A DNA stretch of 32,000 nt from Candidatus Pacearchaeota archaeon (GCA_026016245.1 CP061211.1:600001-632000), one strand, 5' to 3'. Counted from the first letter of the stretch, positions 3,711 to 26,527 are shown. Translations and numbers: made by a program. The notes: generated from the letters alone by a model not told the origin.

Positions 3711-4607
3711 ATGGAAGGAAAAAATACCTTGAATAATTTAAAAGAAAAGAAAAAAGTTATTCTAGGAATTATAGAAAATAAAGGCCCTTCTTTGCCTAGT
3801 GCGATTTCTAGAAAGATAGGGGTTTCTTTATTATTAACTTCTGCTTTGCTGAGTGATATGAGGGCTGATAAGAGTTTGAGATTAAGCAGGCTAAAGATTG
3901 GTGGTTCGCCTCTTTATTATATACAGGGACAAGAAGGACAGCTTGAGAATTTTATAAAGCATTTGCAGCCTAAAGAAAGAGGGGCTTTTGAGCTGCTTAA
4001 GAAAAAACAAGTTATTGATGAGGAAAAAGTTGAACCAGCTTATAGGGTGGCTTTTAGTAATATGAAAGATTTTGCTTTTCCTTTATATGTCAAGATTAAT
4101 AATTCTGAAAAAATATTCTGGCGTTTCCATTCTATAAGTCAGGAAGATGCCTCAAAGAGAATATCAGAGCTGCTAAAGGAAAAACACAAACCAAAACCAC
4201 CAAAAATAGAAAAGGAAAAAGAAAAAATAGAGAAAAAACCAACAGAAGAAAAGAAGGAAGAAAAGACTGAAATACAAAAAATAAAGAAAAGAATTAGGGG
4301 AAGCAAGGAAGAATTTAGAAAGAAGGTTTTTTCTTGGTTGGATGCAAAAGACCTTCATATTATAGAGGAACTTGATGCTGAAGATGCTTTTTGCACAGTT
4401 TCTACAAAATCAGAGATTGGCTATCTCAATTTTCTGGTTGTGGCAAAAAAGAAAAAAATAATCAATGAGGCTGATCTGAGTTTAGCATATCAAAAAGGCC
4501 AGCAAGCTAAGATGCTTGTTCTATTCTTGACTACAGGGAAGCTTACCAAAAAAGCGCAATCTTATATAGGGAATTTGGGCAAGTTTATTATCGTAAATTC
4601 TTTATGA
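3711..4607 (+). CDS. hypothetical protein: N-terminal winged-helix-like domain, K/E-rich linker, C-terminal Mrr-type restriction-endonuclease-like fold
   Basis: The N-terminus ILGIIENKGPSLPSAISRKIGVSLLLTSALLSDM..GGSPLYY looks like a wHTH. The C-terminus NFLVVAKKKKIINEADL...MLVLFLTTGKLTKKAQSY..FIIVN follows the Mrr_cat strand/helix pattern. Assignment is by eye only. Confidence 0.4.
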   Translation: MEGKNTLNNLKEKKKVILGIIENKGPSLPSAISRKIGVSLLLTSALLSDMRADKSLRLSRLKIGGSPLYYIQGQEGQLENFIKHLQPKERGAFELLKKKQVIDEEKVEPAYRVAFSNMKDFAFPLYVKINNSEKIFWRFHSISQEDASKRISELLKEKHKPKPPKIEKEKEKIEKKPTEEKKEEKTEIQKIKKRIRGSKEEFRKKVFSWLDAKDLHIIEELDAEDAFCTVSTKSEIGYLNFLVVAKKKKIINEADLSLAYQKGQQAKMLVLFLTTGKLTKKAQSYIGNLGKFIIVNSL

Positions 4608-4762
4608 TTCTTTATGAAAAATTTAAAATTATTAAATGATGTGAGGGAAAGCTTAATGGATGTAGGAGTAAAATGTTCTAGAATTACTAAAAATAATTCT
4701 ATTTATATTACTAAAAAAAAGAGATAGAAAACTTTTTTAAATTGGTTGGATTTAAGAATGAT

Positions 4763-4795: not shown

Positions 4796-4904
4796 AGCCC
4801 GGTAGTGTAGTGGTCAAATTCTCTAAATAAAAATTTTATTTATAGAAGACTAAGCATCCAAGGCTTTGGACCTTGAGACCCAGGTTCGAATCCTGGCCGG
4901 GCTA
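4796..4904 (+). tRNA. tRNA-Gln (anticodon UUG) interrupted by a ~36-nt intron in the D-loop
   Basis: Acceptor AGCCCGG/CCGGGCT; D stem GTGT..GCAT. Anticodon stem CAAGG/CCTTG with loop CTTTGGA. T arm CCAGG-TTCGAAT-CCTGG; discriminator A. The 109-nt total requires removal of ~4818-4853. Confidence 0.8.
4818..4853 (+). other. non-canonical tRNA intron (between D-loop positions ~20/21 and 22)
   Basis: An AT-rich insert, ATTCTCTAAATAAAAATTTTATTTATAGAAGACTAA, sits between D-loop AGTGGTCAA and the D-stem 3' strand GCAT. It forms its own hairpin (TTCT.TAAATAAAA / TTTTATTTA.AGAA). Boundaries are ambiguous by 1-2 nt because of flanking A residues. Confidence 0.65.
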
Positions 4905-14194: not shown

Positions 14195-14280
14195 AAAAGA
14201 CCTTGAGTGTGGATAATATAAAAATCTTGCGTTCCATGATTTTAGAAAAACTTTAAAAAAACCAAATCCTTCTAAAATTG

Positions 14281-17200
14281 ATGTTAAAAGAGGATAATAG
14301 TAAAATCAACAAAGTAACTGCAATAATTTTTTTTATTGTGTTAATTGGACTAGTCTTTTTTATGTTCTTCATAAAACCTGTAATCACTGCAAAAGCCATA
14401 GCTTTAGAAAAAGAATTTTTTATGCCAAATGAAAAAATCAAAGGGAATTTTACTCTGATTTTAAAAGAGGGCGAACTTATCCCTTCAAATACAAAAATTC
14501 TTATAGAATTGGATGGACAGCAACAAAGAGAGCTCACTATCAAGGAATTTATTGAACTTAGTAATCTTGATATAGAAGAAGAGCAGGGAGGTTTTTTTAT
14601 ACCTAAGACTAGAATTTCTGGGGCTGGCTTTGGATATGGAAAAGCAGGGCATTATGTAGTTTATCCAGATGTTGATTTTCAATTAAAAATTATCTCTCCA
14701 ACAGAAGAAGAAGTAACAGAGATAGAAGAGCCAACAGAAGAAAGTACTGAAGAAAATATTACAGAACAAAACATAACTGAACAAAACATAACAGAAGAAA
14801 ATAAGACAGAAGTTCCAGAAGAAAACATCACTGAAATTAAAGAAGAACCTACAGAAGAAGCAACAGAAGCAGAAGAAGAGCCAGCAGAAGAAGAGAATTC
14901 AGGAGAAAATGAAAATCTAGAAGAAGATGTTATAAACTCATTGTCTATTTTTGCTATCTTAAATAAATTTTTCAGTTTTTGGGGGGCATTTACAATAGTT
15001 GAAGAAAGTGGCAATGTAAAAATTATAGAAGCATCTTGTTCTTTGGATGAGCCATTTTATTATGAGTTAGGAGAGGGGGAGCAAGCAGAACTTATGGAAG
15101 GAAGTGTAAGAATAGATGGAGAAATTGTTAGAGATAATAAGGTTGATATTGATATTAAGGACGATGTTTTAACTGTTTCAACAGATTATTTTGAAAGCTA
15201 TGAAGGTTTTGGTGAGGCTTATCTTGGTGATGATTATGAAATCACCCTTAATTTAAATGTTCTTGATTTAAATATTGAAAAAGAAGGAACCCATACCTTA
15301 ACTATAACTTTGGTTTATGAAGATGAAGAGTTAATGAATGCTAGTGAAGAAATTGAAGTGAAGCCAGAGAGTATAACAATTAAGATTATTGATAAAGATG
15401 GAAATATTGAAGATGAAATTTTGGCTAGTTCTACAAAAATAAAAATAAAGATTAGGAAGATTGTTGTGGGGGGAGAGGAAGAGCATGAAATTGAAATTGA
15501 AGATAATGTGATAAGTATAACTGGTGCAGCGATAATAGAAACTAAACAAGCACTGCCAGAATCTGAAATTATTTTTATTGATTTTCCAGACAACACAATT
15601 ATCCAAATAGATGAACCAACAATCGAGCAAAAAGCTAAGGGTTTTGCAACAGAGGTTTTTGCTATAGAACCAGGCTCTGAGATTGAGATTGAAACTGCAA
15701 CAATAACTCTTGAAAAATTTACAAGTGATACCATAGCTTCAATTTTATATTGTGAAGATTGGAATATTAATAATTTTAATTGTGATGGCAACTGGATGAA
15801 TTCTGGTTTAGAATTTTTAGATAATGGTACACATATAAGTTTTGAGACAGATCATTTTACTGCTTACATTGGAGCTGGAAATATGACTTGCCCTTATTTT
15901 GCAAATGACAGTGTTATTTTAGTTGAAAGTGTTGCTTGCAATGGAACAGCTTTTATTATAAACAGCAGTAATGTTGAGATAGATTGCCAAGGCCATACAA
16001 TTAATTATTCTGCCACAACCTTAGGATATGGTATTAATAATACAGCTGGTTTTGACAATGTTACAATAAAAAATTGCATAATCAAACAAACTAATTTTAG
16101 TATAGCTTATGCTTATGGAATTTATTTAAAAAATGGAATTGTAAATATTACCATACATAATAATACCATTTTAACTTATGCTTATGCAAGTTATGCTATA
16201 TATCAAACACTTCCTTACACTGGCTCAGACAATATAACTGTTACTGACAATATTGTAAATGGGGGAATAAATCTGGGATATGTACCAAATTGTACAGTTA
16301 CTGGAAATAATGTAACTAATAGTTCATTTGTGGTGGGTGGTTCAGGGGACAGCCCTTATTGCCAAATTACAGACAATAATGTTAGTGGGGGAGATGCTTA
16401 TTTTTCTGGGCCCTATCATAATATAGAAGATAATAATTTTTATGACATAGGATCTGTTATGATAGATGGGAGCCATATTTATTTTTCAGACAATTATATT
16501 TCTAGTAGTACAGATTCAGGAGATGGTACTTTAATTTTAGACTCATCAAGCATTACGAATAATACAGTATATAGCAATATAATCGTGACTTCAGGTGATG
16601 ATGATAATGATGCTGTTTATCTTGATGGTGCTAATGACACAAACTTCAGTTATAATAATATAACCACTGATTGTGTTGATTGTGATGGGATTGTGTGGGA
16701 ATATCCTAAGGTCTTCAATTTGGCTTATAATAATATAACCACTAATGGAAATAACAGTTTTGGCTTAATGCTTTCATATGCTTATAGTGATGTTAAAAAT
16801 ATAACTAATAATACAATAAAGACTTATGGGGCTAGTTCTGGGGGGATCTATTTGGAGACCACTTTAAATTATGATGGCCCTAGCAAGAATGTTTTTAGAA
16901 ATAATATAATAGAGACTGCAAAAGGAATTGCATTTAATTTTTCAGAAGATTGTAATGATCCTTATGATGGTCATCCAAGTGATATTGATACAAGCAATAC
17001 AGCTGAAGGAAAGCCAATTTATTATTATTGCAATACAACAAGCACTTTAATACAAGACCTAGATGCTGGGCAGATTCTTTTTGGTCCTGTTGCAAATGAT
17101 CCAAATATTGTTTTAGAGAATGTTTCAGCAGAAGATGGTATTTTTGTTTCTGATGGTGTCAGTAATTTGATAATAAGAGATTCTACAATAGACACATCAA

Positions 17201-20200
17201 ATCAAGAAAAAGTTGCTGGGATATATATATATTGGGGAGATAATATTAATATTTCTAATAATAATTTGATAAATAATTATTATGGTGTTTTTCTATCTGG
17301 CAGTTCTAATAATATAACCTCAAATAATATATCTAATAATGAATATGGTATTTTATTGAAGGGGAGTTCATATAGTTATATTTTATCTAATATAATGGAT
17401 TCAAATACAATCCATATTTTATTAAATTCAACTTTAGGAGGTCATATTGAGAGTTCTAACACAGTCTCCTTAAACAATCTTTCTGGAGGAGATTATGGGA
17501 TTTATTTAAGTGATGAAGAAAATAATGATTTTGAAAACAATAAGATAGAAAATACTGATTATGGAATTTATATTTATGGAACTGTTTCAGAGCAAATAGG
17601 AGCCAATGCTTTTACAAACAATAATGTAAGTAATAGTTCTGTTTATGATTTTTATTTATATTATGTAAATACTCCTGGTTTTGGAAATGATCCTGTAATT
17701 AATTTAACAACAGGAAATGTGATGTCAAGTTTTGAGGCTTGGAATATTGCCTTAAAAAATACGACAAGCCCTGCTGCTGATCCTAGTGGATATGATAATA
17801 TAAGTAAATATTTGAATATAACAAACAATTCAGCTGATTCTTGGGTATTTTTGAATATAAGTTATAATGAATCTGCTTTAGGAGATATAAATGAATCAAG
17901 TTTGGAAATATGGAAGCATAATGGCTCATGGCATAATACTACTTTTTATACAACAAGCGGGGTAAATGAAGCTAGTGATTATGTTTTTGCTAACATTACC
18001 TCTTTCAGTATTTTTGCTCCTTTTGTAAAAAGCACAGGAGGTGATATAGATTCTTGCCAAATTCTTAATGAATCAGGAACTTATACACTTAATCAATCTG
18101 TTTCATCAAGCGGAACTTGTTTCACGATAGAAAATAATAGCATAACTCTTGATTGTGATGGATATACAATAAATTATTCAGCAACAGAAAAAGGTTATGC
18201 AATAAACAACACTAATGGATTTGATAACGTGACAATAAAGAATTGTAATATAAAACAAACTTCAAGTTCTTATACACATGCTTATGCGATATACTATAAT
18301 AATAGTGTTAATAGCACAATATATAATAACATAATAACGACTTCAGGAACCTTTGGTTGGGTAATTTATCTTACTACAACCTCAAGCTTTAATATAACTA
18401 ATAATAATATAACAACTTTAGGAGGAGATGGTGATGCAGTTTATCTTTTTTCGAGCTCAAATAATAACTTAACTAATAATAATATAACAACTTTTGGGAG
18501 TGGTGGTTATGCACTTATTCTTTCCACAAACTCGAGTTTTAACAATCTAAATAATAATACAATTACAACTAATGGACCCGAGAGTTGGGGAATTCATCTT
18601 GCTTCAAACTCAAGCTTTAACACATTAATCAACAATACAATAAATGTAACGACAAACCCAGATGACAAAATAGCACTATATATTGATGGAAGCCATCATA
18701 ATGTTATAGATGGTGGTTCAATCAGTGTAACATCATCCAATAATCAATATGCTTCTGTTTTAATTACTAGAAGTGATAACAATATTATAAAGAACTCCTA
18801 TATCTTCAGCGATTCAACTTATGGTCTTAGAGTTTATTGGACCGGAACAGGTAATACAACAATATACAATACAATAATCAATTCAACATGGGGCCCTGAC
18901 ATTATATACGACAACGATGTTGGTGGCTGGACAAATCTGACTAATTGTTCTTTTAATAAAAGTGATGTTTCATTTGGCTCAGGCTCAACTGGCTTAATAA
19001 ATGTGAAATGGTATGTAGATGTCTATGTTAACAACACTTTTGGATATCCTATTTACTTAGCTCAAGTAGATTTAGTAGATACAAACGGTAATACAGAAAC
19101 AGCTATGACAAACACTTCAGGCTATACAGAAAGAGCAAATGTTACAGAATATTATCAAAATGCTACTGGAAGCTATACTTATAATAACTATACTGCAAAA
19201 GCTTCTAAGACAGGATATTATGATTCAAGCAAACAAGTTAATTTAACAACAAATGCAATCAGGGATGATAATACGCAAGTTGTTTTAACTTTAACAAAAC
19301 ACTCTGGCGGCGGAGGCGGCGGAGGAACAGGTTATTGTGGTGATAATGCTTGTGATCCAGATGAAAATTGTTATAATTGTCCTGAAGATTGTGGAGAATG
19401 TTGTGGGAATAATATATGTGAGCCATTATATGGAGAAGATTATACAAACTGCTGGAAAGACTGCTGTTATCCAGAAGGAATAGAGATGCCTGTCCTGCCA
19501 AACAGAACTTGCTGTGCAAATTTAAATCGAGGAATAATTTATGATATGGGTTGTGTTGCTAATCAGAATGACCAGTGTGAAGGATGTGAGCTTATCGGAA
19601 GTGTTGTTTGTGTAAATTGTGGTAATAATATCTGTGGTTTAGGTGAGAATTATTGTAATTGTCCTGAAGATTGTGTTGAAGCAATATTAGATTGTTCACA
19701 ACTACCTCCTTTGTTTGTAAATATTGAATGGGATTGGTGGCCAATAACTCCTCAAACAAAACTAAACTGGTATCAGATGCCCTCCCCAGATATAGAATTG
19801 TTAAGAACTGAAGTTTATAGTGCAGATAAATGTATAGGAAGTGAATGTAATTTTGTGTTAGAAGAAGTTGTTAATGCTCCGGCAAGTGAATGGTCAGCAC
19901 ATGTTTCTGAAAGACTTAAATTTTTCACAATTATAGGAAAAACAAAACTAGGCCAAGGAGAGTGTAAGCCTGAATATTATGAGCAGGGTGTTGGTAATAG
20001 CAATAAACCAGGATGGTATAATGCTTGTACTTTAGAGCTTTTAAAAGAAGAGACTTTAATGGTTGCAGAGCCAAGAGCTTATTGTTGTTATCCTGAAGCT
20101 GATAGTGAGGGTTGGTATAATGTTCAATGTGATCAGGTGAAGATACCAGAAAATTTAATAAGATATTCTGATTGTGAGGAAGGAGAGTATGCTTTATTAT

Positions 20201-20847
20201 GTGATCAGACAAGTGATATTCTTGTAAAATTCACGCAAGATCTTGTTCATAATAAACAGATTGGAAGAGGAGAACAAGGTCAGAACACTAGTGTTAATTG
20301 GATAGTTTATATGCCTTTTGAAAATATCACTAATAACACAGATTACTTGCTTAAGATTGGAGATATCGTGGATTATGTTGCTTATTGGGATGCAGAAAAA
20401 CAAAAACAATTAGGAAGTGCTAGAGGTTATAAGGCAGGAATCCCATTAATAACTACAGGTGCTTTTGAACTTGAATCAGGAAGGCCTTACTTTGTTTCTT
20501 CAAGTGAAAAAACAGATAGGATAACCTGGGTTGGAAGAATTCCTGAGCATGTTACTTTCCACTTAAAATATGTGCCTGGAACTTTTAGTGAAAATTATAT
20601 GTCCTTACCTTTAGATACTTTTTTAAAGAAAGCAGTTGATATTTGTGATGCTTTAGGTCTAGGAGATGATGGGAGTGTTGCTACTTGGGATCCAATAACA
20701 CAAAAATATGTTAACGAGGAAGCATCAAGGTGTGGGTTTATTAGAAGCCCCATTGGGGGAAATAGTGCGCTTAATTTTGATTTAAATCCTGGACAAGTTT
20801 ATGAAGTTGCAGGGTTAGAACAAGATATAACTTGGAAACAAGAATAA
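14281..20847 (+). CDS. giant (2188 aa) surface protein
   Basis: A single uninterrupted ORF. Domain order: N-terminal TM anchor, acidic sequon repeat, two parallel beta-helix (PbH1-like) cassettes, CarboxypepD_reg-like domain, Gly7 linker, Cys-rich CGxNxC modules, C-terminal globular repeats. Beta-helix rungs show the NNITxN / NxTIxNN periodicity with very many N-x-S/T sequons. The prealbumin-like segment is VDVYVNNTFGYPIYLAQVDLVDTNGNTETAMTNTSGY...KTGYY. The ORF track also allows a TTG start at 14278. Confidence 0.9.
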   Translation: MLKEDNSKINKVTAIIFFIVLIGLVFFMFFIKPVITAKAIALEKEFFMPNEKIKGNFTLILKEGELIPSNTKILIELDGQQQRELTIKEFIELSNLDIEEEQGGFFIPKTRISGAGFGYGKAGHYVVYPDVDFQLKIISPTEEEVTEIEEPTEESTEENITEQNITEQNITEENKTEVPEENITEIKEEPTEEATEAEEEPAEEENSGENENLEEDVINSLSIFAILNKFFSFWGAFTIVEESGNVKIIEASCSLDEPFYYELGEGEQAELMEGSVRIDGEIVRDNKVDIDIKDDVLTVSTDYFESYEGFGEAYLGDDYEITLNLNVLDLNIEKEGTHTLTITLVYEDEELMNASEEIEVKPESITIKIIDKDGNIEDEILASSTKIKIKIRKIVVGGEEEHEIEIEDNVISITGAAIIETKQALPESEIIFIDFPDNTIIQIDEPTIEQKAKGFATEVFAIEPGSEIEIETATITLEKFTSDTIASILYCEDWNINNFNCDGNWMNSGLEFLDNGTHISFETDHFTAYIGAGNMTCPYFANDSVILVESVACNGTAFIINSSNVEIDCQGHTINYSATTLGYGINNTAGFDNVTIKNCIIKQTNFSIAYAYGIYLKNGIVNITIHNNTILTYAYASYAIYQTLPYTGSDNITVTDNIVNGGINLGYVPNCTVTGNNVTNSSFVVGGSGDSPYCQITDNNVSGGDAYFSGPYHNIEDNNFYDIGSVMIDGSHIYFSDNYISSSTDSGDGTLILDSSSITNNTVYSNIIVTSGDDDNDAVYLDGANDTNFSYNNITTDCVDCDGIVWEYPKVFNLAYNNITTNGNNSFGLMLSYAYSDVKNITNNTIKTYGASSGGIYLETTLNYDGPSKNVFRNNIIETAKGIAFNFSEDCNDPYDGHPSDIDTSNTAEGKPIYYYCNTTSTLIQDLDAGQILFGPVANDPNIVLENVSAEDGIFVSDGVSNLIIRDSTIDTSNQEKVAGIYIYWGDNINISNNNLINNYYGVFLSGSSNNITSNNISNNEYGILLKGSSYSYILSNIMDSNTIHILLNSTLGGHIESSNTVSLNNLSGGDYGIYLSDEENNDFENNKIENTDYGIYIYGTVSEQIGANAFTNNNVSNSSVYDFYLYYVNTPGFGNDPVINLTTGNVMSSFEAWNIALKNTTSPAADPSGYDNISKYLNITNNSADSWVFLNISYNESALGDINESSLEIWKHNGSWHNTTFYTTSGVNEASDYVFANITSFSIFAPFVKSTGGDIDSCQILNESGTYTLNQSVSSSGTCFTIENNSITLDCDGYTINYSATEKGYAINNTNGFDNVTIKNCNIKQTSSSYTHAYAIYYNNSVNSTIYNNIITTSGTFGWVIYLTTTSSFNITNNNITTLGGDGDAVYLFSSSNNNLTNNNITTFGSGGYALILSTNSSFNNLNNNTITTNGPESWGIHLASNSSFNTLINNTINVTTNPDDKIALYIDGSHHNVIDGGSISVTSSNNQYASVLITRSDNNIIKNSYIFSDSTYGLRVYWTGTGNTTIYNTIINSTWGPDIIYDNDVGGWTNLTNCSFNKSDVSFGSGSTGLINVKWYVDVYVNNTFGYPIYLAQVDLVDTNGNTETAMTNTSGYTERANVTEYYQNATGSYTYNNYTAKASKTGYYDSSKQVNLTTNAIRDDNTQVVLTLTKHSGGGGGGGTGYCGDNACDPDENCYNCPEDCGECCGNNICEPLYGEDYTNCWKDCCYPEGIEMPVLPNRTCCANLNRGIIYDMGCVANQNDQCEGCELIGSVVCVNCGNNICGLGENYCNCPEDCVEAILDCSQLPPLFVNIEWDWWPITPQTKLNWYQMPSPDIELLRTEVYSADKCIGSECNFVLEEVVNAPASEWSAHVSERLKFFTIIGKTKLGQGECKPEYYEQGVGNSNKPGWYNACTLELLKEETLMVAEPRAYCCYPEADSEGWYNVQCDQVKIPENLIRYSDCEEGEYALLCDQTSDILVKFTQDLVHNKQIGRGEQGQNTSVNWIVYMPFENITNNTDYLLKIGDIVDYVAYWDAEKQKQLGSARGYKAGIPLITTGAFELESGRPYFVSSSEKTDRITWVGRIPEHVTFHLKYVPGTFSENYMSLPLDTFLKKAVDICDALGLGDDGSVATWDPITQKYVNEEASRCGFIRSPIGGNSALNFDLNPGQVYEVAGLEQDITWKQE
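14749..14835 (+). repeat. in-frame acidic sequon repeat (EENITEQNITEQNITEENKTEVPEENITE)
   Basis: Imperfect 15-nt units (ACAGAACAAAACATA / ACTGAACAAAACATA / ACAGAAGAAAATAAG) are visible at 14761-14805. Confidence 0.7.
19306..19326 (+). repeat. GGC/GGA run encoding Gly7 linker
   Basis: ggcggcggaggcggcggagga is a GC-only 21-mer inside an AT-rich gene. It separates the prealbumin-like domain from the Cys-rich modules. Confidence 0.8.
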
Positions 20848-21711
20848 TTAATGAATAATCTTTATTGATTTCATAATTGTTTTTTCTGAATCTTCTGGTT
20901 TAAATTTCACAAAATAATGTCCTTGTGGCAAGTCCCCGGTATAAACTTTATTTCCCTTTACTTCTTTTACTTGACTTCCAATCATATTATAAATATTAAT
21001 TTTCCCAGATTGATTTAAATAGAAAAATTCATTAGCAGGATTTGGTCTAACATTTAACTTATCAACTTTTACTTTTTTTTCTAAATTTTCTTTTATACTT
21101 ACAGTATCAAGATTAAAACTTGCTAAAGTGTCAGCATCAAGGAATCTATGTTGAACTTCTCCTTTTGTAATTCCATATTTTCCTGGTGCTGCAGCTTCAA
21201 TAACTACGGTGTCTTCATCAACTAATCCTAAAGTAGAAGCATCGAAATAAATTTCATATGCCCAACTTGAAGAAGTTATATCAAATCTTCCATAAAGAGT
21301 ATCTAAACCATCTTGTTTGAAACATTTTGCATCAACACTATCTATTCCGCCATCAGTAACATCTCTCACTGAAATTCCATAACCGCCAACAAATGCTGTT
21401 GGTTGTAAAGTAAAATTTCCTCTACAAAACCATTTTAAATAAGAAGTATCTGAAGGGGCATCAAACCTAACTAATCCACTATCTCCAGGAGAAACTCCCC
21501 ATGCGTCTGGAACTGTCTTTACCCAGTAATTGGGAACAATCTGTCCAACCATTGTTTTTGCACTATCTAAACTATTAGGTTTGAAAAAAGTAACATTAGC
21601 GCTATCAGGGTAAGCCCACCCATCAAAGTTAGGTAAAGCATCAGCCAACTTAGGCAAGAGAAAAGTAACTCCAGCTAAGAATAATGTTAATAAAGTGCTT
21701 TTTAATCCCAT
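20848..21711 (-). CDS. secreted protein with T9SS type-A (Por_Secre_tail-like) C-terminal sorting domain
   Basis: N-terminal signal peptide MGLKSTLLTLFLAGVTFLLPKLADA. The C-terminal 70 aa, NVRPNPANEFFYLNQSGKINIYNMIGSQVKEVKGNKVYTGDLPQGHYFVKFKPEDSEKTIMKSIKIIH, fits the PNPa...i.iyd..G..v......idls.L..G.Yfvk...kl.k pattern. Confidence 0.75.
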   Translation of the reverse strand: MGLKSTLLTLFLAGVTFLLPKLADALPNFDGWAYPDSANVTFFKPNSLDSAKTMVGQIVPNYWVKTVPDAWGVSPGDSGLVRFDAPSDTSYLKWFCRGNFTLQPTAFVGGYGISVRDVTDGGIDSVDAKCFKQDGLDTLYGRFDITSSSWAYEIYFDASTLGLVDEDTVVIEAAAPGKYGITKGEVQHRFLDADTLASFNLDTVSIKENLEKKVKVDKLNVRPNPANEFFYLNQSGKINIYNMIGSQVKEVKGNKVYTGDLPQGHYFVKFKPEDSEKTIMKSIKIIH

Positions 21712-21786: not shown

Positions 21787-21799
21787 AAAAATATTTATA
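21787..21799 (+). promoter_or_regulatory. TATA-box-like element upstream of the Cys-repeat peptide gene
   Basis: AAAAATATTTATA ends 15 nt before the ATG at 21815. This implies a very short or absent leader, and M3 or M5 could be the true start. Confidence 0.35.
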
Positions 21800-21814: not shown

Positions 21815-22030
21815 ATGAAAATGGCTATGGAGAAAAAAACCCTTTTAGAAACAGAAAAAGAAAAAGCTTCACTAATTGGAAAAATAGATAATAAGATGGC
21901 TTTTGATAATGAACATTGCAGTTGTCAATGTGCCTGTGATTGTGTTTGTATATGTGATTGTGATACATATGATTCCTTAAAACAAAATAAAGAAAAAGCT
22001 CTTGAAAAAAATTATTGGAAATATTCTTAA
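21815..22030 (+). CDS. candidate RiPP precursor peptide (71 aa) with core CSCQCACDCVCICDC
   Basis: MKMAMEKKTLLETEKEKASLIGKIDNKMAFDNEH-CSCQCACDCVCICDC-DTYDSLKQNKEKALEKNYWKYS. It sits 25 nt upstream of a radical SAM/SPASM gene on the same strand. The eight Cys codons are interleaved with seven intervening codons, six of them distinct (only GAT recurs). Confidence 0.6.
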   Translation: MKMAMEKKTLLETEKEKASLIGKIDNKMAFDNEHCSCQCACDCVCICDCDTYDSLKQNKEKALEKNYWKYS

Positions 22031-22055
22031 TTGAGGGTAAGGGGGGAGATTTAAA

Positions 22056-23459
22056 ATGAAATTTAAATTATTTAGAAATCTCTATTTTAAAAAAGTTAAT
22101 TCTGATTATTGGGGAGTTTATCATCCATTTAATGAATATAAAATAATTTTTATTTCCTCTGATTTAAAAGCTGAACTTAAAAAATTCCAAAATTCTGGAG
22201 AAATATTGGAAAATAATCCTTTTAAGAACGAATTAGAAAAATTAAAAAAAGAATATTTTTTAGTTCCAGAATTATTTAATCATACAAAACCTATACAAAC
22301 TATTAGAGAAGGATTACCAAAAAAACCAAGTATAGGATTATTATATCTTCTTTTAACAGATTCATGTAATTTAAATTGTAGTTATTGTGCTATTGAAGAA
22401 AATTTAGAGAGTCTTTGTAAAAATTCTAAATTAAGAGCAAAGAACATGAGTATAAAAACTTGTGATAATGCAATTGATTTTTATGTTATGTGTAAAGATG
22501 ATAAATTACCAGAACATCGTGTGATATTTTATGGAGGAGAACCATTATTAAATGAAAAAGTTTTTAGACATGCTGTTTCTAGATTGAGAAGTGAAGAAAA
22601 AAAAGGAAATTTAAAAAATTTGGGGATGGTCATGAATACTAATGCAACAAAAGTAAATGAAGAAATTGCAGAATTCTTTGCTAAAAATAAAATAAGCCCA
22701 GCAGTCTCATTAGATGGTTATAAAGAAATTCATGATTCTCAGAGAAAAAACTTAAGAGGAAAAGGAAGTTACGATGAAACTATAAGAGGATATAAATTAT
22801 TTCAAAAGCATGGTATTCAACCGGGAATATCCTGTACAATTACAAAAAATAATATTGGAAAACTAGAAGAAATCGCAGAATTTTTTGTTGATAATCTTAA
22901 TCCAAATGGAATTGGTTTTAATCTTTTACTTGATTTTAAAGATAAAATTAATCCTTTAGCAGTTTCTGTTAAAAAAGCAACTAAAGCAATGTTAAAAAGT
23001 TTTGAATTTTTAAGAGAAAAAGGTGTTTTTGAAGAAAGAGTTATGAGGCGTCTTGGAAAAATAATTAAAAAAGAAATGCATCTAAAAGATTGTGCTGGTT
23101 ATGGTAGACAAGTTGTTGTTGCACCTGATGGAAGAATCGGTCCATGTCAGATAGCAATGGCTGCAGATTATCCTTCACCAGGAAATGTCAATGATTCTAA
23201 AATGTTTGATCCCAATGATAATGAATTGTTCTTAGAATGGAATAAAAGAACAGCATTCAATATGTCTCAGTGTGAAGATTGCAGTTTTATAACAATCTGT
23301 GGAGGAGGATGTGCATATCAGTCTTATATAAAAACAGGAAATATATGGCAAGTTGATAAAAGAATATGTGAACATTGTAAGGAATTAATAGATTGGGTTA
23401 TTGATGATTTATGGAAAACTAAACAAAAAAATATTCAATATGAGACCAGATTGGGATAA
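22056..23459 (+). CDS. radical SAM enzyme with C-terminal SPASM domain and ~95-aa N-terminal extension (peptide-maturase architecture)
   Basis: CX3CX2C cluster motif CNLNCSYC (22365-22388) and GGE motif FYGGEPLL. SPASM motifs are CAGYGRQVVVAPDGRIGPC (CX12GX4C) and CEDCSFITICGGGC (CX2CX5CX3C), followed by CEHC. A G-rich SD (GGGGGGAG) lies upstream. Confidence 0.9.
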   Translation: MKFKLFRNLYFKKVNSDYWGVYHPFNEYKIIFISSDLKAELKKFQNSGEILENNPFKNELEKLKKEYFLVPELFNHTKPIQTIREGLPKKPSIGLLYLLLTDSCNLNCSYCAIEENLESLCKNSKLRAKNMSIKTCDNAIDFYVMCKDDKLPEHRVIFYGGEPLLNEKVFRHAVSRLRSEEKKGNLKNLGMVMNTNATKVNEEIAEFFAKNKISPAVSLDGYKEIHDSQRKNLRGKGSYDETIRGYKLFQKHGIQPGISCTITKNNIGKLEEIAEFFVDNLNPNGIGFNLLLDFKDKINPLAVSVKKATKAMLKSFEFLREKGVFEERVMRRLGKIIKKEMHLKDCAGYGRQVVVAPDGRIGPCQIAMAADYPSPGNVNDSKMFDPNDNELFLEWNKRTAFNMSQCEDCSFITICGGGCAYQSYIKTGNIWQVDKRICEHCKELIDWVIDDLWKTKQKNIQYETRLG

Positions 23460-24033
23460 AGTTTATAAGAAAGGCCCCCATTGGGAAAGAAAACATTCTA
23501 AAGCAATAGAAGATTTTGTTAGATATTTAGAAAAAAGAGACAAAGTTCTTGATCTTGGCTGTGGGTCGGGCCGCGATGTTGTTTTTCTTGCTAGGAATGG
23601 ATTTGATGTTTATGGAATAGATATCTCTAAAGAAGCAATTAAAAAAGCAAGAAATAAAATTAAAGAAAAAGGTTTGAAAGCTTATTTTGATGTAGGAGAT
23701 TTAACTGCCTTGAAATTTGAAAACAATTTTTTTGATGCTATTTATTCTAATGCTGTTTTAAATTTCACACTACTTCAAGAAAGTTGTTCTGAAATCTATA
23801 GAATATTGAAAAAAGATGGCTTAGCATATCTTATATTTCTTTTAGATTACATTCCTTTATTTAATGATGGTAAGAATAAAGAGGATCATTCGTTTTATCC
23901 AGAAGATTTGATTTTACAAACTTATAAAAATTCAAAATTCAATATAATCTATAGCAAGAAATTCCTTTCACTAGATCTTGGGGGAGAAAAACCACATAAA
24001 CATAATATTTTGAACTTGCTTTTAAAAAAATGA
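23440..24033 (+). CDS. class I SAM-dependent methyltransferase
   Basis: Motif I VLDLGCGSGRDVVFLARNGFDVYGIDIS, then post-I/II motifs (DVGDL; FDAIYSNAVLNF; LKKDGLAYL). The ATG at 23440 overlaps the rSAM 3' end by 20 nt. The ORF-track TTG at 23401 is less likely. Confidence 0.85.
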   Translation: MRPDWDKVYKKGPHWERKHSKAIEDFVRYLEKRDKVLDLGCGSGRDVVFLARNGFDVYGIDISKEAIKKARNKIKEKGLKAYFDVGDLTALKFENNFFDAIYSNAVLNFTLLQESCSEIYRILKKDGLAYLIFLLDYIPLFNDGKNKEDHSFYPEDLILQTYKNSKFNIIYSKKFLSLDLGGEKPHKHNILNLLLKK

Positions 24034-24794
24034 GGGGATTGCCGAAAATAGAATTTAAATTAGCATCTTTTAAATATAATTATCAAATTCTAAATTATTT
24101 TGTTTTTCATAAATCTCCAAAAATTAGAAAAAGAATTCTGAATGTTTATCCTGAATTAAGAAAAATTTATTCTATCAAAAAAAATACAGAAAGAGATAAA
24201 TTTATTAGAGAATTTTGTAAGAGACAATCATCAAAAAATTCTAAAGCAATAATGAAGAAAAAAGAAATTATCGATAAAGAATGGAGGAAAATACATACAC
24301 CATTTATGAAGGCATTGAGCAAAGTTTTAGAAATAAAATGGCCCAACACAAAGATAATAGGTTATCTTTCAATAGTTCCAGTTTATCCTAGACATCTCAA
24401 TAATTGGAGTTTTTCTTTTTATTATAAAGAAAATACTAAAGGCATTATTGCTGTAATAGCACACGAAATATCCCATTTTTTATATTTCAAAAAATTCAAA
24501 GAACTTTTTCCAAAAATCAATAAGAGAAGGTATGATATTCCTTATATAGAATGGTATCTTAGTGAAATGCTTGCTCCAATAATTTTAGCACATCCAAAAA
24601 TCAAAAAAATAATTGGAAAGCGAATACAAAGAGGTTATATTTTGAGAAAAAGAGAAAAATTATTATATAGAAAACTTCTTTTACTTTATAAAGATAGTTT
24701 GAAAAATAGAGAACCTTTTTCAGAATTCTTAAAGAAAACTTATAGATTAGTCAAAAGAATAAATAGAGGCTTTGTGGTTAAAGGCTTCCCATAA
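24030..24794 (+). CDS. hypothetical protein with HExxH motif (possible Zn metallopeptidase)
   Basis: AVIAHEISHFLYF (HEISH at 24462-24476), with a downstream E (IEWYLSEMLAP) as a possible third ligand. ATGA overlap with the methyltransferase stop. No family was recognised by eye. Confidence 0.5.
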   Translation: MRGLPKIEFKLASFKYNYQILNYFVFHKSPKIRKRILNVYPELRKIYSIKKNTERDKFIREFCKRQSSKNSKAIMKKKEIIDKEWRKIHTPFMKALSKVLEIKWPNTKIIGYLSIVPVYPRHLNNWSFSFYYKENTKGIIAVIAHEISHFLYFKKFKELFPKINKRRYDIPYIEWYLSEMLAPIILAHPKIKKIIGKRIQRGYILRKREKLLYRKLLLLYKDSLKNREPFSEFLKKTYRLVKRINRGFVVKGFP

Positions 24795-24840
24795 ATTTTC
24801 TTCTCAAAACCTTTTTAAATCCACTAAGCATATAATAATA

Positions 24841-25272
24841 ATGGCAAAAAAGAGGAAAGCAAAAAGAAAGAAAGTTAAAACTAGAAGAAAAGTTAGAAGA
24901 GTGAAAACTAGGGCAAGGGCAAAAAGAGTGGCAGTAACAAAAGCACCTACAACAGTGCAATCAGCTTACACACTTTGTGTTGCAGGCGGAATAATTGTAT
25001 TGATAGCTGGAGTTCTTGCTTTGTTTTTCAGCAGTGTATTTGCATTGACACAGATAGCAGGAACCCTTATTGACCATATAATTAGTTTGATATGTGGTGC
25101 TGTGTTGTTGATTACAGCATCATCAATTAAGAAAAGTCCAAAAAGCGCAGCAATTATAACTTTATTGTTTGGAGTTATTGCATTGATCTTTCCACCACAC
25201 GGATTTATTGTTGGTCCAATCTTATCTTTGATAGGATCAGTAATATTGCTAGTAAGAAGAAGATTAGAATAG
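24841..25272 (+). CDS. small membrane protein: ~35-aa Arg/Lys-rich N-terminus followed by 3-4 TM helices
   Basis: MAKKRKAKRKKVKTRRKVRRVKTRARAKR... is followed by hydrophobic segments (GGIIVLIAGVLALFF; LICGAVLLITA; IITLLFGVIALIF; ILSLIGSVILLV). The ATG at 24841 is preferred over the TTG-type start at 24772. Confidence 0.6.
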   Translation: MAKKRKAKRKKVKTRRKVRRVKTRARAKRVAVTKAPTTVQSAYTLCVAGGIIVLIAGVLALFFSSVFALTQIAGTLIDHIISLICGAVLLITASSIKKSPKSAAIITLLFGVIALIFPPHGFIVGPILSLIGSVILLVRRRLE

Positions 25273-25281
25273 AATTAAAAA

Positions 25282-26421
25282 TTATTTCAGGAATTTAATT
25301 ATTTCAGGAATTCTTAGAAGTTTTTCTTTTCCTGTTTTCATATTTCTTAGTTTAATTTTTCCTTTTTTGATCTCTTCTGCTCCTATGAAAATTACAAAAG
25401 GAATTTTTTGTTTATTTGCATAATCCAGAGCTTTAGAAATTTTATCCATAATAAAACAAGATATATTTCTTTTCCTTAACTGTTCTGCAATTTTAATTGC
25501 TTCTTTCTCTTGTTTGATTGAAATAATAAGACATTTGATATTTTCAACTTTTATTTTTGTTATAGTACTTAATCTTTCTAGACCAAAAGAAATTCCTGTG
25601 CTTTGGATTCCATTGATAATATAAGAACCTCCCCCACCTATGCTTTCCTTAATCTTTTTCACTTTTATTTCAAAGACACTTCCGTTATAATAAGCCAAGC
25701 CGCGAGCAAGACTAGATAAGAATTTAACTTTTACGCCATAATTTTTGCAATATCTCTCTAACTCTTGAATTTCTTTGTATGCCTTATATTTCTTAAAGAA
25801 AGATTCAGGTTTTTTGAATAAAGTAAGGAGATTTTCTGCTTTGTATTTTTTCAGATTTTTCCTTACTTCTTGTTCTGAGAGCTTGTCTAATTTGTCTATT
25901 TCCTTAATAACCTGTTCTTTTTTCTTTATTCCTTCTTTTTCCAAAATTTCATTTATTAATTTTCTATTGTTTATGTAGATTTCAGTATCTATTTCCAATT
26001 CTTTTAGAATTTCTGAGAATAATTTAAGAATTTCAGCTTCATCTTTAGTTGTTGAGCCTATTACATCAACATCACACTGAGTAAATTCCCTAAATCTAGC
26101 TTTTGATACTGGTTCATCCCTAAAAACTTCCCCGATTTGATATCTTCTATAAGGTAATTTTTTGTTTTTCGCCAGTCTTTTAAGCTGGAATGTTAATTCA
26201 TATCTTAAAGCCAGCTTTCTTTTTCCCTTATCTTGAAGCTTGAAAATATCACTTATGATTTCATCTTCTCCTGCTTTTACAAATTTTTCATACTCAATAA
26301 CTGGAGTTTCAGCTGGAAGAAAGCCATAGGATTTGAATTTTTTTATTATGATTTCCTTGATTGCTTGTCTTTTCAGAGCTTCTTCTTCTGAAAAATCACG
26401 AAAGCCTTTTACTGTTTCCAT
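25282..26421 (-). CDS. hisS: histidyl-tRNA synthetase
   Basis: Class II motifs: VKGFRDF, LRYELTFQLKR, YQIGEVFRDE..RFREFTQCDVDVIG, GGGGSY. The C-terminal anticodon-binding domain is IPFVIFIGAEEIKKGKIKLRNM. Confidence 0.9.
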   Translation of the reverse strand: METVKGFRDFSEEEALKRQAIKEIIIKKFKSYGFLPAETPVIEYEKFVKAGEDEIISDIFKLQDKGKRKLALRYELTFQLKRLAKNKKLPYRRYQIGEVFRDEPVSKARFREFTQCDVDVIGSTTKDEAEILKLFSEILKELEIDTEIYINNRKLINEILEKEGIKKKEQVIKEIDKLDKLSEQEVRKNLKKYKAENLLTLFKKPESFFKKYKAYKEIQELERYCKNYGVKVKFLSSLARGLAYYNGSVFEIKVKKIKESIGGGGSYIINGIQSTGISFGLERLSTITKIKVENIKCLIISIKQEKEAIKIAEQLRKRNISCFIMDKISKALDYANKQKIPFVIFIGAEEIKKGKIKLRNMKTGKEKLLRIPEIIKFLK

Positions 26422-26454
26422 TTTATTTTTTACTTACCTCCTTTTTGCTTGGAG

Positions 26455-26527
26455 GGTGGTAGCTGGGAATCGGACCCAGACCACTCGGGCCACAGCCGAG
26501 CATACAGACCACTATACGACTACCACC
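26455..26527 (-). tRNA. tRNA-His (anticodon GUG) with genomically encoded G-1
   Basis: The reverse complement is G-GTGGTAG..CTCGG-CTGTGGC-CCGAG..CTGGG-TCCGATT-CCCAG-CTACCAC-C. The extra 5' G lies opposite discriminator C73, as expected for tRNA-His. No CCA is encoded. Its 3' end is 33 nt upstream of hisS. Confidence 0.85.

Follow-up and report, generated by a model that had tools for sequence, protein, structure and literature searches.

In the pathways of peptides that are made on the ribosome and modified after translation (RiPPs), radical S-adenosylmethionine (rSAM) enzymes with a SPASM domain are already known to act on cysteine-rich peptides. PapB forms thioethers between Cys and Asp or Glu and tolerates Cys-Xn-Asp spacings with n = 0–6 (PMC9413430), while StsB turns the CxCxC...GxGxG core of its substrate (StsA, CxCxCx4GxGxG) into three nested sactionines (PMC10288494). 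The FibroRumin family, made up of a maturase (NCBIfam TIGR04136) and a Cys-rich precursor (TIGR04135), is defined computationally, and we found no experimental paper on it in the open-access literature. Here, we describe a small open reading frame (ORF) in a 32,000-nucleotide stretch of a Candidatus Pacearchaeota genome (GCA_026016245.1, CP061211.1:600001–632000; hereafter the window) that encodes a peptide with Cys at every second position over 15 residues (the ladder), directly before the gene for an rSAM/SPASM enzyme. On balance, we favor the view that this ORF encodes a RiPP precursor of a small family that had not been defined before and occurs mainly in DPANN archaea, and that the product is probably thioether-cross-linked. 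What appears new is the core with Cys at every second position, which is without counterpart in the curated family libraries and open-access literature that we searched. Literature searches on alternating-Cys or CxCxC RiPPs, FibroRumin, CcpM, and DPANN RiPPs did not return a description of the ladder family. CxCxC turned up there only in eukaryotic metallothioneins, in silk and similar proteins, and in StsA, with no pairing of a ladder and an rSAM enzyme.

On the plus strand, positions 21917–21961 translate as CSCQCACDCVCICDC. Eight Cys codons (one TGC followed by seven TGT) are separated, in order, by AGT, CAA, GCC, GAT, GTT, ATA, and GAT. An earlier note on this DNA had reported the alternation and the intervening codons, and both proved exact when the sequence was read codon by codon. 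A charged segment of 34 aa precedes the ladder and a tail of 22 aa, DTYDSLKQNKEKALEKNYWKYS, follows it. Since the frequency of Cys over the six frames of the window is 0.0275, eight in-register Cys are expected ~2e-8 times per window. The only other alternating run in the six frames is an off-frame CRCFCYC. It sits in an antisense 60-aa ORF (24778–24960, minus strand), where the Lys/Arg-rich start of a 166-aa protein encoded further downstream is read off frame, and illustrates that short CxC runs can come about in sequence that is no gene. Tandem Repeats Finder reported a single weak period-6 array over the ladder (TGTGAT x5, 76% matches, score 37, 21935–21964). The peptide frame has three in-frame ATG codons at its start (21815, 21821, and 21827). 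The NCBI entry IB618_03740, a hypothetical protein of 69 aa from a Candidatus Pacearchaeota metagenome-assembled genome (MAG; 710-kb contig), is 100% identical and starts at 21821. The N-termini of the homologues (alignment A6) agree with a start at 21821 or 21827, hence we consider one of these two ATG codons, giving 69 or 67 aa, more likely than 21815. The position of a TTTATA hexamer upstream (Table 1) would suit a leaderless transcript of the peptide gene. The sigma-70 promoter scan is uninformative here and irrelevant to an archaeal host.

Next, we considered how the peptide is conserved. Twelve non-identical homologues from DPANN archaeal metagenomes have the ladder nearly unchanged. Three metagenomic homologues came from a word-indexed search, and degenerate-pattern scans of metagenome and genome collections added others, including one from a Nanoarchaeia MAG. 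More distant members were found beside rSAM homologues, namely CSCYCNCDCVCIC in a Woesearchaeota MAG (L015) and CNSCSCDCVCICDCEC in L017 (the homologue set comprises P0002-4, P0139-143, and loci L001–L017). When 1.84 billion representative proteins were searched with a profile, six family members came back in all; by these searches, the family appears real but rare. The curated precursor families of Pfam and NCBIfam gave no match for the peptide. Alignment of the 13 sequences showed four invariant Cys columns in the ladder and an invariant Ile, the Asp and a fifth Cys being nearly invariant. Across the family, the ladder comprises 7–9 Cys at every second position over 13–17 residues. In most members, D-A-E-H immediately precedes the first Cys, and the leader keeps the motif L-x-G-K-[IV]-D, a likely contact point for the leader-binding domain of the maturase. 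The tail is retained in all relatives, extending 15–29 aa past the last Cys; its sequence is variable and it always contains 2–4 Tyr/Trp (alignment A6), so far as can be judged either as a follower or as the acceptor half of the core. The earlier note had pictured a leader, a central core, and a follower. The 34-aa leader-like segment and the 22-aa tail do exist, but the variable, Tyr/Trp-rich tail may belong to the core rather than act as a follower, much as the acceptor half does in hairpin sactipeptides such as StsA.

At the codon level, pairwise comparison of the core over seven orthologous genes (16 codons) gave 95 synonymous versus 16 non-synonymous differences, with TGT/TGC, AGT/AGC, GCC/GCT, CAA/CAG, and ATA/ATT among the synonymous swaps. 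The periodicity is therefore held at the protein level, just as had been proposed from the sequence, and does not reflect a slipped nucleotide repeat. However, the L013 ladder is without one TGTGAT (Cys-Asp) unit that L009 and L012 have, hence slippage does occur now and then at the 3' end of the ladder. Judged from these comparisons, the peptide gene is a conserved gene under purifying selection.

The gene after the peptide gene encodes an enzyme of 467 aa. Pfam recovered Radical_SAM (3e-17), Fer4_12, and, below its cut-off (17.3 vs 21.5), SPASM. The radical-SAM motif CX3CX2C is present as C104-N-L-N-C108-S-Y-C111, and its three Cys are invariant in 38 homologues. Seven SPASM Cys (C346, C364, C406-x2-C409-x5-C415-x3-C419, and C438), invariant or nearly so in the same set, would serve two auxiliary [4Fe-4S] clusters. 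In the AlphaFold2 (AF2) model (pLDDT 94.5), residues 1–90 form four strands and then three helices (pLDDT >94). A Foldseek search with this model gave TigE (3.7e-20) and CteB (5WHY, 4.6e-20) at the top, aligned at full length (~460–480 columns) including the RiPP recognition element (RRE), and next the anaerobic sulfatase-maturating enzyme (anSME), ChlB, and SuiB. The phmmer alignment to CteB begins at residue 30. On the model, the N-terminus of the window enzyme is a predicted RRE of the winged-helix type. Among NCBIfam models, the enzyme scored 198.3 bits with the FibroRumin maturase (cut-off 400), 159.8 with PapB (340), 138 with DynA, 130 with QhpD, 127.1 with anSME (TIGR03942, 349), 117.1 with the SCIFF maturase (TIGR03974, 425), 104–107 with the cyclophane formers GrrM and YhhB, and 91.5 with StsB (NF045574, 625). 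By domain order, family scores, and fold matches, the neighboring rSAM enzyme stands nearest to thioether-forming maturases, in keeping with the earlier note, which had considered thioether-forming rSAM chemistry for the ladder.

Two features of the enzyme bear on its possible chemistry. In anSME, an extra insertion with Cys (the 'tctc' stretch) carries the fourth ligand of auxiliary cluster I (Aux I); in the alignment, this insertion falls on a gap in the window enzyme. This gap suggests that Aux I has an open site, as in CteB, that would be able to bind a substrate thiolate. In addition, six active-site-proximal positions read F, Y, N/V/I, S, H/Q, and A/I/G in the family, compared with F, F, T, S, H, and Q in CteB and Y, T, I, S, K, and L in StsB (PMC10288494). 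This set is closer to that of CteB than to that of StsB and leans, if weakly, toward the ranthisynthase type; the lean is weak since the comparators are two published residue sets.

Peptide and enzyme genes are closely linked. In the window, 25 nt separate the peptide stop from the rSAM ATG, and the window scan found no terminator-like site between the two genes, hence they are probably co-transcribed. In every locus with readable flanks, the stop of the ladder peptide lies 2–25 nt before an orthologous rSAM gene (447–470 aa, 43–50% identical to the window enzyme). The earlier note had held that loss or frameshift of the ORF in close relatives that keep the rSAM gene would refute its reading; the check did not do so, a Cys-rich ORF being found 2–120 nt before every related rSAM gene with a readable upstream region. 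We noted that in L010 (253–1619) the rSAM gene beside an intact ladder peptide is itself frameshifted near the SIDG motif, owing either to a pseudogene or to an assembly error. Distant rSAM relatives (35–43% identity) in L019, L020, L024, and L025 also adjoin Cys-rich peptides. The cores in L019, L020, and L024 are Cys-rich and less regular than the ladder. In L025, from a contig with a GC content of 0.59, a 37%-identical rSAM lies between two peptides (2061–2291 and 4454–4666) with a common leader, IVPTxDAExAxLG, and one of the two bears CVCRCSCACNC. By its sequence, this run is a Cys ladder outside the low-GC archaeal group. The irregular cores and the L025 ladder beside distant rSAMs therefore place strict alternation at one extreme of a broader substrate group.

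Table 1. Positions, counted from the first nucleotide of the window, of the ladder peptide gene and of the features around it.
Feature	Position	Strand	Basis or remark
TTTATA hexamer, possible archaeal TATA box	21794..21799	+	Read from sequence; ~22–28 nt before ATG 21821/21827
Putative precursor peptide gene	21815..22030	+	71 aa from first ATG; ORF call and homologues
Leader motif L-I-G-K-I-D (family L-x-G-K-[IV]-D)	21872..21889	+	L and G/I (near-)invariant in alignment A6 (13 sequences)
Cys ladder CSCQCACDCVCICDC, 8 Cys	21917..21961	+	Center C-D-C-[VI]-C-I-C kept in all subfamilies
C-terminal tail DTYDSLKQNKEKALEKNYWKYS	21962..22027	+	Alignment A6
AGGGGGGAGA, Shine-Dalgarno-like run	22040..22049	+	Read from sequence; 6 nt before rSAM ATG
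Predicted RRE + radical-SAM + SPASM maturase, 467 aa	22056..23459	+	Pfam, NCBIfam, 38 homologues, AF2, Foldseek
Class I SAM-dependent methyltransferase	23440..24033	+	Methyltransf_25/11/31 at 1e-22; open from TTG 23401
254-aa HExxH protein	24030..24794	+	Alignment A4, AF2, Foldseek
166-aa protein, Lys/Arg-rich N-terminus, apparent membrane-spanning segments	24772..25272	+	ORF; overlaps the end of the previous gene

Compared with described systems, the ladder system appears from its sequences to work like a sactipeptide or ranthipeptide cluster, with FibroRumin as the closest named relative. The FibroRumin maturase is the best-scoring family for the window enzyme, matched near full length, and in both cases a small Cys-rich peptide comes directly before an RRE-rSAM-SPASM enzyme; the L019 precursor also weakly matches TIGR04135 over its leader and the start of its Cys core (E = 0.0045). 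Unlike that family, the window enzyme reaches 198 bits against a cut-off of 400, the window peptide has no match to TIGR04135 at E <= 10 (precursor cut-off 45 bits), and the Cys-x alternation, the archaeal host, and an HExxH partner protein all lie outside the family's definition. The ranthipeptide systems PapB/freyrasin and CteB/SCIFF share architecture and fold with the window enzyme (CteB, 5WHY), PapB is the second-best family score, and the Cys-rich core of the window peptide contains Asp, as in ranthipeptides. The earlier note had pointed to Asp as a known acceptor of thioethers, in line with the Cys-Xn-Asp range of PapB (n = 0–6; PMC9413430). By contrast, the PapB model (NF047865) scores less than half of its cut-off (159.8 vs 340), and the window core is Cys-x-Cys with Asp at +1/+3, without Cys-X3-Asp repeats. 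Neither the score with TIGR03974 (117.1 vs 425), nor the six-Cys-in-forty-five spacing, nor a SCIFF precursor match places the peptide with SCIFF. The window core has eight Cys versus three Asp, therefore most Cys would need acceptors other than Asp.

The hairpin sactipeptides StsA/StsB and BlaA/BlaB resemble the ladder system in having CxCxC donors on one strand, possible C-terminal acceptors, and an RRE-rSAM-SPASM maturase. They differ in having 2–3 donors versus 7–9 and a GxGxG register that the window peptide is without, and the tail is too short in some ladder members. StsB further differs from the window enzyme at the six proximal residues (91.5 bits vs 625). The CXXX-repeat (TIGR04115), CefA/CefB (NF038107), and CLI_3235/CcpM (TIGR04065/TIGR04068) systems also combine regular Cys cores with SPASM maturases, and TIGR04065, in the C-terminal part of the model, aligns weakly with the L015 ladder (E = 0.1). 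However, their enzyme models are weak on the window enzyme (73–118 bits, cut-offs unmet), their period is 4 or 5 rather than 2, and their leaders differ. In the cyclopropyl synthases (TvgB/TigE), the Tyr of the GYW motif ligates Aux I (PMC10878394); the 467-aa window enzyme is without GYW, although TigE is its top Foldseek match. It is also unlike anSME, whose Aux I has Cys at every ligand position, in its score (127.1 bits vs 349) and in the gapped Cys insertion, and the window peptide is without CxPxR. Metallothioneins are likewise rich in Cys and in CxC motifs, but the ladder peptide has no homology to them and differs in its leader-like N-terminus, obligate pairing with an enzyme, and hydrophobic residues between the Cys.

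Downstream of the maturase gene lies a class I methyltransferase gene that overlaps the rSAM 3' end and, by 4 nt, the start of the next gene; ATG 23440 is its more likely start. Together with the peptide, rSAM, and HExxH genes, it apparently forms one operon. The top NCBIfam matches are generic (TehB/ArsM/TPMT-like). No counterpart occurs in L001, L010, L012, L013, or L017, and the methyltransferase is an accessory specific to the window genome. A class I methyltransferase domain forms part of a related rSAM/SPASM enzyme (P0122, 756 aa, 36% identity) by natural fusion, which suggests that enzymes of this group are repeatedly coupled to methylation. Orthology between the window methyltransferase and the P0122 domain was considered and rejected, the similarity being generic (25% identity, E = 5e-7).

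A third gene, encoding 228–254 aa, lies downstream in the window, L001, L010, L012, L013, and L017, and L024 has a fragment of it; in the window, it is that of the HExxH protein. The gene after the maturase gene in L002–L004 instead encodes a B12-binding rSAM enzyme (L002 1967–2854), not an HExxH protein or a class I methyltransferase, and these contigs stop inside it. H145-E146-x-x-H149 and E174/E179 of the HExxH protein are invariant in 14 sequences (alignment A4) and fall on helices 136–159 and 173–186 of the AF2 model (pLDDT 90). Pfam, NCBIfam, and PDB gave no sequence match, including a family-profile search of PDB sequences. Nearly all of the weak Foldseek matches listed were to metallopeptidases, namely lethal factor, IrrE/PprI, M1, M61, selecase, and the lanthipeptide peptidase EryP. 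From the model, the HExxH protein is a probable zinc metallopeptidase of the gluzincin type, and we think with moderate confidence that it is probably a portable leader peptidase of RiPP clusters. Our confidence is only moderate because most copies linked to ladder peptides carry EExxHxH. We also noted two homologues in other settings. In L146 (2399–4765), one lies beside a different rSAM/SPASM enzyme and a 52-aa Cys peptide (…SCGGSCIGGNCK…), and in L022 (3793–6252), on a Parcubacteria contig, another lies beside a 49-aa peptide and a homologue of the ATP-grasp enzyme MvdD. Judging from such neighborhoods, the family may be a RiPP accessory, and a portable peptidase, shared by DPANN archaea and candidate phyla radiation (CPR) bacteria. 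A further gene, for the 166-aa protein, had only sub-threshold matches in Pfam and NCBIfam. It was considered as a cluster member and set aside, for its product is without similarity to the protein encoded at the corresponding position in L017 and probably lies outside the system.

By its sequence features, the peptide looks like a RiPP precursor: it is encoded by a small ORF beside a maturase gene, it has a conserved recognition region and a conserved core, and it is conserved together with the enzyme. Thioether chemistry and the topology of the rings we infer from the relatedness of the enzyme. In the proposed mechanism, the RRE of the maturase would bind the leader of the peptide, and each ladder Cys in turn would ligate the open iron of Aux I. 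A 5'-deoxyadenosyl radical would then abstract hydrogen from an acceptor residue, leading to a C-S thioether. Repetition of this step along the ladder would give a multiply cross-linked, rigid, and protease-resistant product. The acceptors could be the conserved Asp, Val/Ile, and Ile within the ladder, giving a ranthipeptide-like topology (cf. PapB), or they could be supplied by the C-terminal tail, giving a sactipeptide-like hairpin (cf. StsA). A hairpin would account for a tail that is always kept though variable. In the window genome, the methyltransferase may add methyl groups, and the HExxH protein may cut off the leader. One possible role of the product is in the interaction of a small-genome symbiont with its host or with competitors. 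A stricter version of this proposal is that most or all of the 7–9 Cys are made into thioethers or other S-to-C bridges within ~15 residues, and that the leader is removed by a new family of HExxH peptidases shared by DPANN archaea and CPR bacteria across RiPP classes. We regard this stricter version as tentative and, taken as a whole, doubtful.

Several observations weigh against the thioether-cross-linked RiPP that we favor. That thioethers form, how many links are made, and which residues serve as acceptors are points that we infer. The enzyme lies under the curated cut-off of every characterized family, and its sequence and fold equally suit non-thioether SPASM chemistry, the top fold match (TigE) being a cyclopropyl synthase and the top PDB match by sequence being anSME (3e-23). 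Three of its six active-site-proximal residues (A112, Q365, and I366) also depart from those of its own family. L017 and P0140 have 15 residues after the last of their 8–9 Cys, a tail that is therefore too short for a full hairpin. As for leader removal, the Foldseek search with the HExxH protein gave no significant match (best E = 0.7), copies beside most ladder peptides have EExxHxH in place of HExxH, and one HExxH homologue occurs in a non-RiPP setting (L023).

The points on fold and sequence feed an explanation, unlikely in our estimate, in which the peptide is indeed a RiPP precursor but the maturase performs non-thioether chemistry, the Cys serving, for example, for metal binding or for disulfides in the product. 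Such an enzyme might convert Cys to formylglycine as anSME does, form cyclopropylglycine on Val/Ile as TvgB/TigE-type enzymes do, epimerize residues, or make C-C or C-O links to the Tyr/Trp of the tail in the manner of cyclophane or dynobactin enzymes. Formylglycine formation would fit the anSME match, but the target motif of anSME, Cys/Ser-x-Pro-x-Arg, is absent from the peptide and the enzyme is without the Cys-bearing insertion. Cyclopropylglycine formation draws on the match to TigE, a methyl-cyclopropylglycine synthase that acts on Ile, and on Val/Ile and Ile columns that are as well conserved as the Cys, yet the enzyme is without GYW, the defining motif of cyclopropyl synthases (PMC10878394). 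Links to aromatic residues would be consistent with the Tyr/Trp in every tail and with the scores of the DynA, GrrM, and YhhB models; the best family scores, however, belong to FibroRumin (a maturase of Cys-rich RiPPs with putative chemistry) and to the thioether-formers PapB and QhpD. Moreover, the register of Cys is itself the most invariant feature of the substrate.

Still less probable, to our mind, is a metallothionein-like peptide or an Fe-S or metal chaperone with eight free thiolates, beside an rSAM enzyme whose substrate is unrelated or that receives metal or sulfur from the peptide. CxC and CxCxC are typical of eukaryotic metallothioneins (PMC4862169, PMC7216689), alternation on a beta-strand would put all thiols on one face, and TehB, ArsM, and TPMT, the nearest named relatives of the methyltransferase, act on metalloids or thiols, although this similarity is generic. 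On the other side, the peptide strictly adjoins an enzyme that bears an RRE, a leader-binding module, and its leader-like N-terminus is conserved. The non-Cys residues of the ladder (D, V/I, I) are conserved and hydrophobic, and conserved hydrophobic residues between Cys are unusual for metallothioneins. Nor does the peptide have homology to the metallothionein families in Pfam or NCBIfam. The earlier note had named this alternative; given the strict linkage to the enzyme it has become less likely, and we keep it as a rival explanation. Lastly, the ORF might not be a gene but a frame that arose by accident over a slipped TGTGAT-type repeat within the rSAM promoter region. The weak period-6 array and the antisense CRCFCYC run would be in keeping with such an accident, as would the frequency of bare (C-x)6C runs in viral contigs as off-frame products of simple repeats. 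However, the frame (65–79 aa), its start region, leader motif, and stop are conserved in 13 non-identical sequences from different samples, synonymous differences far exceed non-synonymous ones, and the ORF on the opposite strand (21825..21968) is without support. Because of these conservation data, we regard an accidental frame as already refuted, with a negligible chance of being right. A separate scan of viral contigs for seven in-register TGY codons returned at least 120 loci, all rejected as simple repeats or off-frame runs and none like the ladder family, hence matches to (C-x)n alone have to be filtered by conservation.

Synteny does not extend to the genes around the cassette, with RtcB upstream in L001 and L002 and other genes flanking the cluster in the window. 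Transposases adjoin the cassette in two loci, a DDE transposase in L013 (8309–9223, minus strand) and a Y1 (IS200-type) transposase in L017 (3004–3429, plus strand), and the GC content of the cluster (0.25–0.30) is slightly under that of the window (~0.32). The non-syntenic flanks, adjoining transposases, and lower GC therefore suggest a mobile cassette that moves horizontally between lineages. DPANN archaea have been reported to possess very few biosynthetic clusters (bioRxiv 10.64898/2026.04.17.719132). The 710-kb contig suggests that the host has a very small genome; that a cassette of four genes is kept in such a genome, and apparently moves between lineages, suggests a role in a symbiotic lifestyle. 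If most or all of the ladder Cys were bridged, no RiPP scaffold yet described would be more densely cross-linked, and the product would be the first RiPP characterized from DPANN archaea. If cross-linked, it would also probe the number of successive rings that a single SPASM enzyme can install, and their topology. PapB has already been exploited for enzymatic peptide stapling (PMC9413430, PMC12373016), to which a densely cross-linked ladder, if true, would be relevant.

Other features of the window were noted in passing. Upstream of the cassette, a gene at 14278–20847 (plus strand) encodes a 2189-aa protein with NosD/right-handed beta-helix repeats, a linker that is acidic and rich in Glu and Thr, and, at the C-terminus, a module rich in Cys (CGDNACDPDENCYNCPEDCGECCGNNICEP...). 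It is probably one of the giant surface proteins that are common in DPANN archaea. The next gene (20848–21711, minus strand), divergent from the peptide gene, encodes a 287-aa protein with a terminal Por_Secre_tail/type IX sorting domain (Pfam 1.1e-7, TIGR04183 4.9e-7); this domain belongs to a secretion system of Bacteroidota and is unexpected in an archaeal genome. A second copy of the cluster was considered at 5.4–8.4 kb (ORFs of 466, 213, and 255 aa) and rejected in favor of housekeeping genes, which we take to be a RecJ-like gene, an exonuclease gene, and the gene for eIF2-alpha. The remainder of the window is consistent with an archaeon. The ORFs at 4.9–8.9 kb presumably encode the ribosomal proteins S15 and S27e, eIF2-alpha, and aEF-1-beta. 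Just upstream of the S15 gene, Rfam found a 109-nt tRNA (4796–4904, plus strand, 54 bits) that ARAGORN did not report and that probably contains an archaeal-type intron. Finally, the genes for an enzyme and its substrate adjoin each other: a Pfam-confirmed histidyl-tRNA synthetase gene lies at 25282–26526 (minus strand), with tRNA-His(GTG) directly before it on the same strand.

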